This document shows positions 5,490 through 53,719 of a DNA stretch of 64,000 nt, one piece after another (the stretch's first letter is position 1; each line of letters begins with the position of its first letter). The notes under the pieces are model-generated. The model was not told the origin of the DNA, did not search any database, and saw nothing but the letters and a program-made list of their open reading frames with translations. The position numbers and the translations under genes were made by a program. Origin of the DNA: Escherichia phage YJin-2024a; the sequence record PP534475.1, one strand, 5' to 3'.

Positions 5490-6286
5490 TTTAAGTATTT
5501 TTAAGAACTCTCGTAAAAACTCTTAAAAATACAGACGATACCGGGAGAGTCATAAGTCTCACTCATTAAGTATTTCAAGACAAAATACAGTAACGTCTAT
5601 TATTTTCCAGTTTAAGTCAGGGTGACTTAGTGGTTATGTCCTGCGGTATATTGAGGACTCGGTTAGGCTTGGGGTCATGACTTCCCACCTTTTGCTGCTA
5701 CTCAACAGGAGTTATCGCGAATTACCTGTGCTATTGTGCACCATTAGTGACATCTCTCATGTCAGCATTTCCCACTTTGTGGATAGCTTGAAAAACTACT
5801 CCGATATGGAGAAAGAACTTCACTATCCTAGAATACCTTCTAAAGTTCTTCTTTAGCCTGGACATAGTTAAATCGTAATAAAACTATTCAGCAGACTGGT
5901 TGGTTAGTCTGGAACCAACTACCGCGTGGTTTAGGCAGTGCGCAACTAACCTCGGAAGCTTTTACATTAAAAGCACCAGTTATCCAGTTCTTACCGACCG
6001 TAGGACTCGAACCTACATCTTCCACCAGTTACGGCTTGATAATACCAATTATACTAGGACGGCAGTGTTACTACATAAGTGATTTCCACACCCCACTATT
6101 TATAAATTAGAGAAGAGTTTAGGGGAGAGGTTTCAGACGCCTCATTTTACACGTTCTAGCCACTAACCGGGATTGCCGCCCCCTGTGTACTAGTTTTACA
6201 ACTAACCCACCGACTCTATTCAATGCGCTCCGGTTGGGATTCTGCACTCAGCGTAATCGGCTCGCTGTTCTCTAATTTATGAATAT

Positions 6287-6315
6287 ATTATACAGAATTT
6301 AAAGGCATTTAGCAA
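6287..6315 (-). promoter_or_regulatory. T5-type early promoter (TTGCTA-17-TATAAT) firing into the ORF-free region 5490-6280
   Basis: Minus-strand consensus hexamers with AT-rich upstream element; -35 lies 9 nt after the stop of the 6324-6767 gene. Confidence 0.6.
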
Positions 6316-25482: not shown

Positions 25483-25512
25483 TTGCAAGGGAGTATTATT
25501 TTATAGTATAAT
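25483..25512 (+). promoter_or_regulatory. T5-type early promoter TTGCAA-18-TATAAT
   Basis: Followed by CATAAATGAGAGAC leader; transcribes the ORF-poor region 25520-26000. Confidence 0.55.
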
Positions 25513-26009
25513 ATTCCCATAAATGAGAGACATTAGTAAAAATTGATTTTGCTAATTTTTCTTGTTTACAATCCGCGATACGGAACAGTTAGGCTGCCCC
25601 ATTAAGGGTTGTTTTAACTGTTACGTGTTGGTTTTTAAACAAATAGTTAATAGAATACTTAGCGATCTGCGTCCCGTAGGAACCCTGGTAAGGCCTCGAA
25701 GCAACCTAGATAGAGGTGGTTGTGAAGTGAGACGGGAGGAGTGAAAAACTCCGAGACGTGATTCTGTAAGTTATATTGCATCTAGTATGAGCTAGTATAT
25801 GAAGCATTAGGTGAGCAAATCTGGCTTAGCGGCCATCCTCAAGGATTTGTGCGGTATAGCAAAGCAGCAGCGCAGCGTGAAAGTGGAAGTTGCCACCCCA
25901 CTTCAGTATTTGCAATTAATTTGTTGAGAAATTGACAGTAACAGTTGTTCTATTCTCTCTGAATAGTCCTAAAGAAAACTTATTTCATTTCCAACACAGG
26001 AGTATTGTT

Positions 26010-39085: not shown

Positions 39086-39575
39086 TTTCAAATTGCCCGT
39101 ATATGCTTTACGGGCGTTTGTATCAATTGAGCAAGAAGGTGATTATTCCGTAATTACAACAAGATATAATAAATATGTGCTAGATAACAGGAAGTTGCCT
39201 GGCACTTTTTCTCAACGTAGGCTTATTCTATTTGAGAAACGGAAAGAATTACCATACAAGCTCTATCCTATTAGAGGTAGAATATCCATGTTATCTCAAT
39301 TAGTTGGGTCAAAGCGTAACCAATTCATAGATTCTGATGGAAATCTTATTAATTGGAAGAAAACTACGTTTTATGATGTTGTCACCTCTAAAGTTTTGCA
39401 TTCAGCTAGAATTTATAACGGAAAATACCAATGCTATGTAGCTAAAGTTCCATATCCATTTGTATTATCCTATGTTCCAGCTTATATAAGTTATATTCTG
39501 GTAAATAATAGCCCTGTTATTTATCAAGTCCATCAAGAGGAGCCTGAAATTCCTAGACTTAGAATAAAATTATGA
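39078..39575 (+). CDS. hypothetical protein
   Basis: 165-aa ORF overlapping both neighbours; start uncertain. Confidence 0.35.
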   Translation: MLDFKLPVYALRAFVSIEQEGDYSVITTRYNKYVLDNRKLPGTFSQRRLILFEKRKELPYKLYPIRGRISMLSQLVGSKRNQFIDSDGNLINWKKTTFYDVVTSKVLHSARIYNGKYQCYVAKVPYPFVLSYVPAYISYILVNNSPVIYQVHQEEPEIPRLRIKL

Positions 39576-40924
39576 AGGTTGTTATATCTAATAAAGCCTA
39601 TTTCAAGCCCGATGATGAACTTTGGGATTATTGTAGTAAGCAAACCACTTATCACATTGAGACAATGACTAGTAAATACCCTATTATGTATAAGAATAGT
39701 GGTGTTGTTGCTAAAGAGATTAAGTGGATTCCTATCACGCGTCTGGATCTACTAGATGCTAAAGGAGTAAAATACGAATTAGTTGATAAACGCACATTAG
39801 CTCCGGTAGATATACCAAAACCTACGTTCAAGCTGCGCGAAGAAGATCAGCTTCCAATATACGAAGAATGCGATGATACCTGTATTATTAATGGTAAGCC
39901 TGGATTTGGCAAAACTATCCTAGCCCTGGCACTTGCGTATAAATTTGGCCAGAAAACTCTGGTAATTTGTACCAACACATCTATTCGTGAAATGTGGGCG
40001 GCAGAAGTTCGTAAATGGTTTGGGTTTGAACCGGGTATCATAGGTTCTGGGAAATACAATATTGATCCACCAATTGTGGTCAGTAATATTCAAACAGTGA
40101 ATAAACATGCGAATAATCTGTCTAAAGTATTCGGTACTGTTATAGTTGATGAAGTTCACCATTGTGTGGCCACAACTTTCACTAACTTCCTAGAAATATC
40201 ATGTGCTCGCTATAAGATTGGACTATCTGGAACATTAAAACGTAAAGATGGTCTACAAGTTATGTTCAAAGATTTCTTTGGATATAAGATCTTTAGCCCA
40301 CCAGTTAATAATACTGTTGCACCTACAATCCATAGGTACTCCGTACCTGTTGAGTTATCAGGGAACCAAAACGTACCCTGGGCATTACGTGCTAACGATG
40401 TGTATAATCATCCTGAATATCGAGAGACTATTATAAACCTGGCACATTTATACGTGAATATGGGGCATAAAGTACTCATTGTAAGTGATAGAACAGAGTT
40501 AATCCAAACAGTGCTAGAAGCTCTTGCACAGCGTGGTGTTACAACATATGAAATTATAGGGGCAACCCACTTAGATGACCGATTAAAAATTCAGGAAGAT
40601 ATAGCAAAAGGTGGACCTTGTGTACTTGCAGCAGCTCAAAGTATCTTCTCTGAAGGTATTTCTCTTAACGAGTTGTCTTGTTTAATAATGGGGAGTCTCA
40701 TTAATAATGAATCTCTCATCGAACAGCTTGCAGGACGTGTTCAACGTATTGTCAATGGTAAACTCGACCCTATTGTTGTAGATCTAATTATGAAAGGTGG
40801 CACTGGACTAAGACAGGCTTCTGGACGTATGGCAGTATATCGTAACAACGGGTGGAAAACTATTACTATGACTCCGGAGAAAGCAGTTCAATTAGCTAAA
40901 ATTGCATTTGGCAACAGCTCATAA
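39572..40924 (+). CDS. SF2 DNA helicase (T5 D10-like)
   Basis: Walker A GKPGFGKT, DEAH-type VIVDEVHH. Confidence 0.8.
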   Translation: MKVVISNKAYFKPDDELWDYCSKQTTYHIETMTSKYPIMYKNSGVVAKEIKWIPITRLDLLDAKGVKYELVDKRTLAPVDIPKPTFKLREEDQLPIYEECDDTCIINGKPGFGKTILALALAYKFGQKTLVICTNTSIREMWAAEVRKWFGFEPGIIGSGKYNIDPPIVVSNIQTVNKHANNLSKVFGTVIVDEVHHCVATTFTNFLEISCARYKIGLSGTLKRKDGLQVMFKDFFGYKIFSPPVNNTVAPTIHRYSVPVELSGNQNVPWALRANDVYNHPEYRETIINLAHLYVNMGHKVLIVSDRTELIQTVLEALAQRGVTTYEIIGATHLDDRLKIQEDIAKGGPCVLAAAQSIFSEGISLNELSCLIMGSLINNESLIEQLAGRVQRIVNGKLDPIVVDLIMKGGTGLRQASGRMAVYRNNGWKTITMTPEKAVQLAKIAFGNSS

Positions 40925-41144
40925 ATGATGTATAATATATACATAAATTTGAGAGAGAAAGTTTCGGATTGATAAGAAAGTCCGAAGCAGAAAAATAAAA
41001 ATTTTAGTTGCTAAATTCTCTCGAAATCTAGTATAATATATACATAAATTCGAGGAGAAAACAAAAATTAAATTCTTCGATTATGAAAAGCTATACTTAC
41101 TAGCTAGAGGAAATTCCGACCTAATTATTAAGCTATTCAAAAGA

Positions 41145-41429
41145 ATGCTTACAGAGCCTGATGCTCACCAATTATTGGTCGGTTCCTCATTCATTTTGAA
41201 TGAATCAACAATAGTTGATAATCCAAATAAATTGTCTAATAGACAACTGGCAGAATATCTAGGAATTTTAAGTCTACGAAATTATGCCGAATACAAGTTT
41301 ACAAACGATCCTAGTTTGGACATACAATATGTTCCAGTATGGATACCACGTTTAGTAATCGACACTAACCCACTAATCGCAATTAACAAATCGAAATTAA
41401 TCTTTAAAGAGGAAATAAAATATGGCTAA
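41145..41429 (+). CDS. hypothetical protein
   Basis: 94-aa ORF with weak RBS. Confidence 0.3.
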   Translation: MLTEPDAHQLLVGSSFILNESTIVDNPNKLSNRQLAEYLGILSLRNYAEYKFTNDPSLDIQYVPVWIPRLVIDTNPLIAINKSKLIFKEEIKYG

Positions 41430-42195
41430 GTCTTGGGGCGAAACTACTGGCGGTTCTAACGATAAAATCGAATTCCTGAAGTTCAACAACGGTATCACTC
41501 GTGTTCGTATCGTTTCTGGTGTTCTTCCACGTTATGTCTATTGGCTGACTAATAAAGAGGGTAACGCAGCTCCTTTCGAATGTCTCCGTTTTAACCGTGA
41601 CAAAGAGAGCTTTGTTCGTGGTAAAGCTGATCCAGTTCATGAGATGGGCTTCTTCGAGAAAGAGCTGGATAAAGAGGGTAATCGTGTTCCGCTGAAACCG
41701 AAGAAAAACTATATCGCTTTTGTTATCGACCGTTCTGATAACAAACTGAAAGTAATGGAAGTCAAGGCTACTATTCTGAAAGGCATCCAGTCTATCATGA
41801 AGCAGTTGAATCTGGCAACTCCGTTTGATATTGATATTTCTATCGAGAAAAAAGGTAAAGGTTTCGATACTGAGTATGATGTACAGCAGATTGCTGCTAT
41901 GCAGTTCCAGATTAAGCTGCAAGATCCTAACAGTGCGGAATCTAAGCAATATGCTGCGGATGTAGATCTGATCGGTGAAGCTATGTGTGACGAAGATGGC
42001 GACATCATTAAGTTCGAAAAAGTTCCTTCTCTGGAACAAACCTATCCGGTTCCTACCTATGAAGAGCAGAAAGAAGCAATTCAAGCCTTCATGGAGGGTC
42101 GTGAGAATAAAGATGATGATGCCAAATCTGGTAATAGCAATGTAGGCTCCCAGAAAGGTATTGACACAGAAGCTGCAAGCGATCTGGACGACTAA
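41422..42195 (+). CDS. gp32-like ssDNA-binding protein with acidic C-terminal tail
   Basis: RVRIVSGVLPR...NAAPFECLRF resembles T4 gp32 AVIRFLPSK...QAPFAIL; C-terminus ...EAASDLDD; high-expression codon usage. Confidence 0.5.
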   Translation: MAKSWGETTGGSNDKIEFLKFNNGITRVRIVSGVLPRYVYWLTNKEGNAAPFECLRFNRDKESFVRGKADPVHEMGFFEKELDKEGNRVPLKPKKNYIAFVIDRSDNKLKVMEVKATILKGIQSIMKQLNLATPFDIDISIEKKGKGFDTEYDVQQIAAMQFQIKLQDPNSAESKQYAADVDLIGEAMCDEDGDIIKFEKVPSLEQTYPVPTYEEQKEAIQAFMEGRENKDDDAKSGNSNVGSQKGIDTEAASDLDD

Positions 42196-42201
42196 TAAAT
42201 A

Positions 42202-42226
42202 GAGGGGCTTCGGCCCCTTTCTTTTT
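42202..42226 (+). terminator. UUCG-tetraloop intrinsic terminator
   Basis: GGGGC-TTCG-GCCCC followed by TTTCTTTTT. Confidence 0.7.
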
Positions 42227-42231
42227 AACCA

Positions 42232-51646: not shown

Positions 51647-53719
51647 TTACCTTATATGGATGTACCCGTTTTGCAGGTCTATCTTCATTCTGTAATAGGC
51701 TTCCGGGTTCCCTGATAACGCAGCATTTCTATCATAGATTATATTAACACCGATTTGTGATAAGAAGGCATTTCCTGCCACAATCTTATCAGCAGTCACA
51801 GTTCCATTAACAATCATGTTGCCATGAAGAACCATTGCAGGGTTAATCCAACCGGAACCATTCCATTGACGAGTAAATGCTGTTTGCGGAGCATTACTAT
51901 TAAACTCAGTCAATACATCATATCTAACTGGTGGACTACCAAAGTTATTCTGGAAGAAGGCATTAGCTTGTCCACCATCCCAGCCTCCAAGACCTGGAAT
52001 ACCTAAGGAATACATGCCAGGGCCTCTTTGCCCATCTGCACCAATAGTACCTTCAGTACCACTCCACTGAACTACATCAGACCAGCTAGTACCTTCAAGA
52101 AGTTTGTTAGTAACTGGATCAAGTGTACCCGTAGTCGCATAGATATTTTGTGTCATATCTGTGCGGTTAGGTGGAGTTTTTGACCAACCAGGAGGCGGAT
52201 AATCTTGTTCTAGTGGTTTAGCAGGTAGAGATGTTGCTAACTTATAAACAAATACTGTTTGTTTACCCTGCATCCCAGTACCAATATCTACGTCACCATT
52301 AGGAGTTCCAATAACAACTCCGCTAGAAATACGAAGAGTATCACCATCATAACGTATCCACTGAGTAGCATTACCTATATCTAACTTTGGCTTAGCAGAA
52401 GTGTTATCCATTCCCATCCAGATACCAGATTTTGTATCTCCCCAAGTTTTACCTTGAGTATAGATTGCCGGATTATCTCGACCAGTTAGATTAGTCATTA
52501 CAAAGTTAGCAGCATTGATAGTTTTAGTTATAACACTACCATCAACGTTAACTATCTTTTTAATAGGATCGAAAGATATTGGTGCTTTTCCTTCTGCATC
52601 TAGGAGGCCTATATTAATAGCACCAGTAGCAGCATCGATTAAAAATGTTTGCTTCCACGTGGAGCCATCTTTAATCTTACCTTTAATATACGCATAGTTT
52701 ACTTCTATACCAGTTTCATTAACAAAACTATTATCAAGAGGAGTATCCTCATTTAGTATAAAAGTCTGTACTGCAGAATCTGTTACATCTTGAGCATCTG
52801 GTCCCCACGCTATAGAGGAGACTTTAAATTTATGCTCAATTTTCCACGGAAACGATATAATAGTTGCCGCTTGTGCAGCACCTACGTTAATTTTTTGGGC
52901 CTTAGTCCATCCAGTTCTTGCAAATTCTGCGGAGTCTATATAAGACACGACAAATTCACGAACATTGGCTCCAGACCCCCTGTTCCAATCCCATTGCACA
53001 CGTAAATCATAACGTTCTTTACCATCTGCAATTCTTGCAGCCTTGAAGGTAATATTGCTAGGAGCAGTGGGCGGTACAAAGTTATACTCTACAGTAAGAA
53101 CTTTAGAAAACTCAAAGTATCCAGAGGAGTCTACAGTTACACCATCAGGCATAGTAACTTGCCCTGATATGCGTACTTTATAATCCCCAATAGGAACACC
53201 ACCAAATCTAATAGTGTGGGATAGTGGACCTATATAATACTTTACCCACGGGCTATTTGAAGGTTGAGTACTCTTTAGCTCAATAGTACAATAACTAGCT
53301 TCTCCCGTAGTTTCTATAACTACTATTGGAGCACCAACACCCACATCTACTGGATCTGCTTCTGATCGAGCAGCAGTAATAGTAGGTTTTTCTTTGGTAC
53401 TAAAAGTAGTTTTATTAGATAAATTTATACCGATCTTAGCCTCTAATAGCTCAGAGTCTATAATAGAATCATAAAAAGCCCCTTGAATCTCGTAAGAGGT
53501 TGAAGGGGTTAGATTATTAATCATTACGAAGAAAGTATCTATACCAGTATAATCACGTCTATCTATACTTTCTCCTGTCTTTAACCAAAAAGATCTACCA
53601 ATAACGTCATAGTCAGTATATATAGAGTGCTGGACATATGCCATTGTATATCCAGTCATTATACTATTTAAGACCATTTTGGCTGGTGCATTATTCGAAA
53701 TCATTAAATGGATGCCCAC
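51647..53719 (-). CDS. tail tip/baseplate protein (T5 pb4-like)
   Basis: 690 aa, beta-rich, downstream of hub gene. Confidence 0.55.
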   Translation of the reverse strand: MGIHLMISNNAPAKMVLNSIMTGYTMAYVQHSIYTDYDVIGRSFWLKTGESIDRRDYTGIDTFFVMINNLTPSTSYEIQGAFYDSIIDSELLEAKIGINLSNKTTFSTKEKPTITAARSEADPVDVGVGAPIVVIETTGEASYCTIELKSTQPSNSPWVKYYIGPLSHTIRFGGVPIGDYKVRISGQVTMPDGVTVDSSGYFEFSKVLTVEYNFVPPTAPSNITFKAARIADGKERYDLRVQWDWNRGSGANVREFVVSYIDSAEFARTGWTKAQKINVGAAQAATIISFPWKIEHKFKVSSIAWGPDAQDVTDSAVQTFILNEDTPLDNSFVNETGIEVNYAYIKGKIKDGSTWKQTFLIDAATGAINIGLLDAEGKAPISFDPIKKIVNVDGSVITKTINAANFVMTNLTGRDNPAIYTQGKTWGDTKSGIWMGMDNTSAKPKLDIGNATQWIRYDGDTLRISSGVVIGTPNGDVDIGTGMQGKQTVFVYKLATSLPAKPLEQDYPPPGWSKTPPNRTDMTQNIYATTGTLDPVTNKLLEGTSWSDVVQWSGTEGTIGADGQRGPGMYSLGIPGLGGWDGGQANAFFQNNFGSPPVRYDVLTEFNSNAPQTAFTRQWNGSGWINPAMVLHGNMIVNGTVTADKIVAGNAFLSQIGVNIIYDRNAALSGNPEAYYRMKIDLQNGYIHIR

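Follow-up and report, generated by a model that had tools for sequence, protein, structure and literature searches.

The region from 40925 to 41144 is the control gap between the D10 helicase gene and the operon of T5.125 and D11, the latter encoding single-strand DNA-binding protein (SSB). Comparative evidence indicates that T5.125 probably starts at an ATT codon at 41067, behind a strong Shine-Dalgarno (SD) sequence. In the explanation proposed here P31A and P31B are consensus sigma-70 early promoters, 101 nt apart, which would read into a bicistronic T5.125-D11 unit ending at 42201-42228. The P31B transcript would carry the standard short T5 leader, with the SD GAGGAG in its initial transcribed sequence and the start codon 9 nt on. 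A near-cognate ATT would replace ATG and give a product of 120 residues, the first 26 of which would be missing from public annotations. A hairpin would sit in a leader of ~125 nt exclusive to P31A transcripts. Taken as a whole, from the two promoters to the ATT-started 120-residue T5.125 and D11, this explanation is considered very probable on the strength of sequence comparison. The re-annotation is the useful result and the promoters add nothing new.

The window is the whole stretch of 64,000 nucleotides that was analysed. A megablast search with the region 40700-41500 matched 441 phage records, all from T5-like Demerecviridae, and 78 of these reached ≥99% identity. The window is from a T5-like phage of the genus Tequintavirus. 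Its coordinates are offset by 34,579 bases from those of T5 (NC_005859), the NC_005859 coordinate being the higher, and the IMG/VR copy of T5 has the same sequence as the window across the region. Comparison of the ORF list with NC_005859 showed that the ORFs around the region match the T5 early replication block. The order of this block is 855-aa DNA polymerase, 165-aa ORF, D10, small ORF, D11, D12 and D13. The genes and the terminator of the region are as follows.

39572 to 40924, plus strand: D10 ATP-dependent helicase gene, 450 aa (from the ORF list; T5.124/D10 in NC_005859).
41067 to 41429, plus strand: T5.125 coding sequence as proposed here, 120 codons plus stop, with the putative start ATT at 41067-69; PHROG 4258.
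41422 to 42195, plus strand: D11 single-strand DNA-binding protein (SSB) gene, the second cistron after T5.125.
42201 to 42228, plus strand: intrinsic terminator AGAGGGGCTTCGGCCCCTTT followed by CTTTTT (from the terminator scan and the sequence).

The terminator at 42201-42228 is the "putative rho-independent terminator" of the T5 annotation and closes the P31A/P31B transcription unit of T5.125 and D11. The terminator scan found none between 40925 and 42200, after either promoter. At 41422-41429 the T5.125 stop overlaps the D11 start (ATGGCTAA). D11 is preceded by an SD of its own, GAGGAAA, and translation of the two cistrons may be coupled.

The sequence-only reading had proposed two tandem early promoters in this region, and every element of the T5 early-promoter consensus was indeed present. 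They are the P31A and P31B of NC_005859, where "promoter P31A" at 75467-75541 corresponds to window positions 40888-40962 and "promoter P31B" at 75568-75642 to 40989-41063. Both promoters are therefore already known and annotated in the T5 RefSeq record. Their parts are listed below.

40896 to 40943, plus strand: promoter P31A, with -35 TTGGCA at 40908-13, a 17-nt spacer and -10 TATAAT at 40931-36.
40896 to 40907, plus strand: UP-like block of P31A, CTAAAATTGCAT (by consensus alignment).
40943, plus strand: predicted +1 A of P31A, after the discriminator ATATAC (by analogy with other T5 promoters).
40943 to 40960, plus strand: initial transcribed sequence of P31A, ATAAATTTGAGAGAGAAA (by consensus alignment).
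40989 to 41007, plus strand: A-rich tract AGAAAAATAAAAATTTTAG, the UP element of P31B.
41008 to 41044, plus strand: promoter P31B, with -35 TTGCTA at 41008-13, an 18-nt spacer and -10 TATAAT at 41032-37.
41044, plus strand: predicted +1 A of P31B, after the discriminator ATATAC (inferred from the consensus).
40930 to 40949 and 41031 to 41050, plus strand: exact shared string GTATAATATATACATAAATT.

In the promoter scan P31A had 11/12 consensus matches and P31B 10/12. The UP-like block and -35 of P31A lie within the 3' end of D10. An A/T-rich UP block adjoins the -35 in both promoters, CTAAAATTGCAT in P31A and AGAAAAATAAAAATTTTAG in P31B. The A-rich tract that had been noticed after the hairpin is thus present and is identified as the UP element of P31B. 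Both promoters continue with ATATAC and then ATAAATT, which fits the T5 discriminator and initial transcribed sequence. The initial transcribed sequence of P31A conforms to the T5 consensus; its SD is degenerate, no start codon comes after it, and the sequence is 100% identical to that of Epseptimavirus.

A repeat beginning with TATAAT had been described as occurring twice about 100 nt apart. The direct repeat is real and its spacing is 101 nt, but exact identity is limited to GTATAATATATACATAAATT. Past this string the copies diverge, the first continuing as TGAGAGAG and the second as CGAGGAGA, with 87% identity over 31 nt. The pattern TATAATANNNNCATAAATT with ≤2 mismatches was found 15 times in the window against 0.72 expected, so the repeat is not random. 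The shared 20-mer represents the general consensus of T5 early promoters and is no duplication peculiar to this locus. Alignment of the 15 sites gave an A/T UP block, TTGCT(T/A), a spacer of 17-18 nt, TATAAT, an ATAT-type discriminator and ATAAATT(T)GAGAGAGGAG. Nearly every consensus promoter in the window has an A/T block resembling TTAAAAATTTAT directly 5' of its -35. The same alignment placed the SD already within the first 20 nt of the consensus transcript. Genes directly after consensus promoters usually have their ATG ~20-30 nt past the predicted +1, behind the leader-embedded SD. Under the strict pattern P31A and P31B were the sole promoter pair ~100 nt apart in the window. The P31B spacer UUCUCUCGAAAU was considered as an anti-SD element that might pair with the T5.125 SD in P31A transcripts, and this was set aside as an unproven idea. 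The pairing is predicted, though weakly (z -2.1), AAATTCTCT is a generic T5 promoter spacer motif, and the pairing was not clearly preserved in Epseptimavirus.

Three other consensus promoters of the window have no obvious gene start close behind them. On the plus strand at 53459-53530 a long hairpin, AGCCCCTTgaatctcgtaagaggttgAAGGGGTT, comes immediately after a consensus-like promoter (TATAATAGAATCATAAAAA), in the place of an SD and ATG. The transcript of a consensus promoter at 25507-25580, also on the plus strand, has no nearby start codon, and a second promoter-like site (TTGCTA...TACAAT) lies ~40-60 nt downstream. These sites may be another tandem pair. On the minus strand at 6220-6292, within the part of the window that bears tRNAs, a perfect consensus promoter (TATAATATATTCATAAATT) leads into GC-rich sequence whose first 60 nt contain neither an SD nor an ATG. 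Its product may be a tRNA or a non-coding RNA.

The P31B leader (ATAAATTCGAGGAGAAAACAAAA) is of the standard type, and at +24 it holds ATT (41067) where other promoters have ATG. The elements that bear on translation are the following.

41052 to 41057, plus strand: Shine-Dalgarno sequence GAGGAG, 9 nt 5' of the ATT.
41145 to 41147, plus strand: internal codon Met27, with no SD; the start of the public 94-aa product.
41083 to 41103, plus strand: mini-ORF MKSYTY*, 6 codons (ATG AAA AGC TAT ACT TAC TAG), out of frame (+1).

The region had been read as containing only mini-ORFs, which proved incorrect. The frame of the ORF at 41145-41429 is open upstream to 41037. No in-frame ATG, GTG or TTG occurs between 41037 and 41145, and for this reason the extension of T5.125 was overlooked. 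ATT 41067 is the sole near-cognate codon at a working distance from the SD. A start at this rare codon would explain why public annotations truncate the gene and why the region looked like one of mini-ORFs only. Translation from the ATT gives (M/I)KFFDYEKLYLLARGNSDLIIKLFKR-MLTEPDAH.... The next real ORF had been credited with a weak ribosome binding site; its ATG at 41145 does lack an SD, but this ATG is internal Met27 of the predicted 120-residue protein. The 6-codon ORF noted after the second promoter likewise exists, but as an out-of-frame artefact inside the conserved T5.125 coding sequence. Its ATG arises from GAT-TAT-GAA and is lost where relatives have TAC-GAG or TAC-GAA; it is absent in Epseptimavirus and other lineages.

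Six independent kinds of evidence indicate a coding extension with its start at the ATT: homology, orthologue starts, profile and residue conservation, selection, the boundary of indels, and predicted structure. Homologues of the extended protein were found throughout the family. A tblastn search with the 120-residue query matched 906 phage records, 904 of them with ≥80% query coverage. Matches began from residue 1 in phages of Klebsiella (66%), Proteus (54%), Providencia (51%) and Vibrio (45-47%), and at residue 4 in one Vibrio phage group. Annotated orthologues from Klebsiella, Proteus, Providencia and Vibrio phages and from Epseptimavirus have ATG at the homologous codon, with GTG in Vibrio phage D212. 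Across six other lineages the orthologues have ATG, GTG or TTG at the position equivalent to the ATT. The change is seen directly when Seafire (...gagagacaaaaATGaaattctttgattac) is set against the window (...gaggagaaaacaaaaATTaaattcttcgattat). The SD of the ATT clade, GAGGAG, is stronger than the GAGAGA of the ATG-bearing sister genus Epseptimavirus. Residues 1-120 aligned to all 120 positions of PHROG 4258 (208 bits, E 7.5e-62), and no Pfam family was found for the protein. L12, G15 and L19 were invariant in seven orthologues from six lineages, while position 27 varies and is M or L in homologues.

Variation within the ATT clade was assessed in 34 genomes, comprising the window, 22 from IMG/VR, 4 from GenBank and 7 metagenomic genomes. 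ATT was retained in 34/34. Codons 2-26 contained 8 synonymous variants and 1 non-synonymous variant, with no stops and no indels, a synonymous excess with a binomial P of 3e-5. If these codons were untranslated ~22 non-synonymous variants would be expected, as scaled from the synonymous variant density of the remaining gene, against the 1 seen (Poisson P 6e-9). Compared with Epseptimavirus pN/pS was 0.15 in the extension and 0.09 in the rest of the gene. This pattern of substitution indicates that the 26 extra codons are translated and under purifying selection. Single-base insertions and deletions were found in the A-tract spacer AAAACAAAA just 5' of the ATT (genomes L050 and L055) and none downstream. 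Their confinement to the spacer places the coding boundary at the ATT.

An AlphaFold2 model from an 18-sequence alignment had a pLDDT of 92.8 and a pTM of 0.87, with residues 1-30 at 95-97. The predicted N-terminus comprises a strand at 2-4 and helices at 6-12 and 17-29. The model suggests a winged-helix-like fold for the T5.125 product. The 94-residue form would be without three structural elements of this predicted fold, the strand and the two helices.

Base pairing is possible in the P31B transcript at 41050-41080 between the SD region UCGAGGAG and codons 3-5 (UUCUUCGA). The stem leaves the AUU in a 15-nt loop, and the whole fold has a predicted energy of -9.8 kcal/mol (z -1.7). A similar SD/start stem was predicted in the ATT-bearing metagenomic lineage L090 and not in the ATG-bearing Epseptimavirus. 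The predicted stem might add structural control of initiation.

A 6-bp hairpin had been described after the first promoter. The hairpin is real and is longer than described.

40961 to 40988, plus strand: hairpin GUUUCGGAUU / AGUCCGAAGC with loop GAUAAGAA, 10 bp, no U-tail.

Its ten base pairs join 40961-70 with 40979-88 and include two G-U pairs. The fold has an energy of -14 kcal/mol (z -5.5) and lies at ~+19 to +46 of the P31A transcript, just 5' of the P31B UP element. Since the sequence after it, CAGAAAAAUAAAAA, is A-rich and not U-rich, the hairpin is no terminator. The minus strand was also considered as a terminator and rejected, as a proper U-tail is missing. Between Tequintavirus and Epseptimavirus the hairpin is 28/28 identical, and together with the P31A initial transcribed sequence 46/46 identical, compared with 72% identity in the P31B core and 78-91% in the neighbouring coding sequence. 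Sugarlandvirus keeps the core 7-bp stem CUUCGGA/UCCGAAG with a 3-nt loop, a U-G pair having become C-G. Five single-base stem variants were found among relatives, of which two keep pairing through G-U and three break a pair. No compensatory double change in the stem was found among the relatives. A comparable hairpin is absent from the inter-promoter regions of Novosibvirus and the metagenomic L073 lineage, and the window contains no second copy of the hairpin and no complementary target. In the preferred explanation the hairpin would function at the RNA level in the long leader, affecting stability or processing and not termination. With low confidence, it may be a conserved element of the long P31A leader affecting mRNA stability or processing, or a DNA-level site beside P31B.

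The sequence-only reading had suggested that the region may specify short regulatory RNAs or a leader peptide. That P31A, and perhaps P31B, makes short discrete regulatory RNAs, or that the genes downstream are regulated by a leader peptide or an attenuator, is very unlikely. Such RNAs would suit the stability of the hairpin in the P31A leader, its 100% conservation between two genera beside flanks of 72-91% identity, its retention with a shorter loop in Sugarlandvirus and the degenerate P31A SD without a start codon behind it. Against them, the hairpin has no U-tract after it and there is no terminator before 42201. A search of 40700-41500 against Rfam at a permissive E-value gave chance-level matches only (SprD and mir-205; best E 0.21); SprD scored 19 bits where the gathering score is 100. 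MKSYTY lacks conservation and is an out-of-frame reading of conserved coding sequence. A 22-codon basic ORF running from ATT 40968 to a TAA inside the P31B -10 was rejected as a leader peptide. Its start lies in a hairpin arm, the changes between genera are mostly non-synonymous and track the promoter elements, and Sugarlandvirus has lost the ORF. The inter-promoter regions of other genera have no common hairpin or peptide.

Production of both a full-length protein from the ATT and a shorter isoform from Met27 is also highly improbable. Nested isoforms occur in phages and the in-frame ATG is present in all T5-type and Epseptimavirus sequences, but 41145 has no SD before it, Met27 is Leu in several lineages and the truncated form would be missing part of the predicted core. 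The least probable alternative, with hardly any likelihood, is that the ancestral ATG was lost in T5-type phages and the 94-residue form is made from ATG 41145 only, the 26 codons being an untranslated relic; AUU is a poor initiator and the 94-residue annotation is found in three T5 genome records, in the five Tequintavirus records inspected and on 177 contigs, but the 26 codons are open and free of indels with an 8:1 synonymous ratio across 34 genomes (P 3e-5 and 6e-9), ATG 41145 is without an SD while the ATT has GAGGAG at 9 nt, stronger than that of the ATG-bearing sister genus, residues 1-26 make up three secondary-structure elements of a confidently predicted fold, and Met27 is not conserved.

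With the ATT start proposed here, T5.125 would be systematically shortened in public records. The 285-nt (94-residue) form is annotated in 5/5 Tequintavirus records inspected, these being the T5 RefSeq record, Lindwurm, HASG4, Tennessee and DaisyDussoix. An exact-sequence look-up placed the 94-residue protein, named "D10-3'" in UniProt, on 177 contigs including three T5 genome records. The same look-up did not find the 120-residue sequence of the window, with either M or I first, among ~15 billion deposited proteins. One NCBI pipeline entry has the extended frame (EEKTKIKFFDY...) and is flagged "partial". Homology-based annotation evidently noticed the missing start and left it unsolved. A literature search gave no report of what T5.125 does or of an ATT start in T5. 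T5.125 is conserved across Demerecviridae and, with the start proposed here, is 26 residues short in all five records. Expressing, deleting or modelling it from the deposited sequence would then mean working with a protein missing a predicted strand and two helices. Gene finders restricted to ATG, GTG and TTG produce promoter regions that are seemingly "empty". T5.125 is a clean and testable candidate for AUU initiation in a model coliphage.

The start codon of T5.125 is variable across the family. TTG is the start in three lineages (L079, L091 and L101) and GTG in Vibrio phage D212. The metagenomic lineage L090 (56% identity) has ATT at the same codon, with an AAGGAG SD and a 7-nt spacer. In a neighbour-joining tree the ATG-bearing Epseptimavirus and Sugarlandvirus fall between the T5 clade and L090, which implies that ATT arose at least twice. 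A more distant orthologue (L087, IMGVR_UViG_3300028829_003282, locus 701; 35% identity) carries GAGGGG followed by ATA at the start position, with no canonical in-frame start nearby. AUA initiation is possible in this genome. In another genome (L086, IMGVR_UViG_2974604416, locus 701-1045) the orthologue has in-frame stops (MLFYSYEKLYLL*RGDSDKIMYLFKRLA*N). These could come from sequencing error or stop recoding, or mark the gene as a pseudogene.

The promoter arrangement is also widely shared. All lineages examined have a T5-type promoter 5' of the orthologue, and the gene 3' of the orthologue was always D11 (SSB) in the genomes examined. Two T5-type promoters 95-101 nt apart precede it in Tequintavirus, Epseptimavirus, Novosibvirus and the metagenomic lineages L073 and L079. 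In L082 the promoter is evidently duplicated. Sugarlandvirus has three tandem T5-type promoters at spacings of 92 and 100 nt, seen in its genomes L068, L069 and L003 ~230 nt 5' of the orthologue. With the Sugarlandvirus ATG just 4 nt past the last -10 hexamer, translation would have to start either on leaderless mRNA or on transcripts from upstream promoters, by way of a GGTG SD overlapping the promoter. Priunavirus and Cetovirus have an extra small gene between the helicase gene and the proximal promoter. A different 177-codon open frame ends at the P31A UP block in an Epseptimavirus variant (L061, locus 2-535), where it replaces the helicase 3' end seen in Seafire. This frame may be an inserted gene, for example a homing endonuclease, abutting the promoter.

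Weak starts that recur after tandem strong promoters are a feature deserving experiment. In the preferred explanation the ATT start would throttle translation of the first cistron in an IF3-sensitive manner, as for infC and pcnB. A throttled T5.125 would let strong tandem promoters supply abundant SSB mRNA, and this supply may be their main purpose. It is possible, though doubtful, that this is a conserved Demerecviridae design in which the first cistron repeatedly evolved weak or IF3-sensitive starts behind two to three strong promoters ~100 nt apart. If so, high transcription would serve the SSB gene and the translational throttle would set a low dose of T5.125, which would be a winged-helix-like replication accessory protein. 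The throttle would possibly respond to IF3 or ribosome status in infection. The E. coli translation apparatus would in that case read T5.125 as a further AUU-initiated gene, in addition to infC and pcnB. As for a phage tRNA that might read AUU as an initiator, the window offers only an ordinary-looking tRNA-Met(CAT), at 1758-1832 on the minus strand. Its type (initiator, elongator or lysidine-modified Ile) could bear on the decoding of AUN starts.

The elements of the region were compared with known systems. T5 promoters of the PN25/P25/P26 type were reportedly the subject of work by Gentz and Bujard in 1985. P31A and P31B of the window are alike in position, sequence and architecture to the T5 early promoters of that name in NC_005859. 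The shared architecture is an A/T UP block, -35 TTGCT, 17-18 nt, TATAAT, an ATAT discriminator and ATAAATT(T)GAGAG carrying the SD. They do not differ in substance, the phage being nearly identical and the element the same. The T5 early promoters have an ATATT discriminator consensus (Klimuk et al. 2020, PMC7472727), and the discriminator of the window promoters agrees with it. The gene belongs to PHROG 4258 (unknown function; the T5.125/"D10-3'" family of Demerecviridae), and its position between the D10 helicase and D11 SSB genes is conserved.

The closest counterparts of the proposed start are in E. coli, where AUU starts are known for infC and pcnB only and IF3 discriminates against AUU (PMC5499595). 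T5.125 resembles these genes in having a near-cognate AUU behind a good SD and in having orthologues with canonical starts at the same codon. By analogy its initiation would be expected to be low and IF3-sensitive (PMC5499595). It differs from infC and pcnB in that initiation at AUU is inferred from comparison, and in that the start of the T5.125 family is not fixed but varies between ATG, GTG, TTG, ATT and ATA. It is a phage gene without a link to IF3 itself, and autoregulation is therefore not implied.
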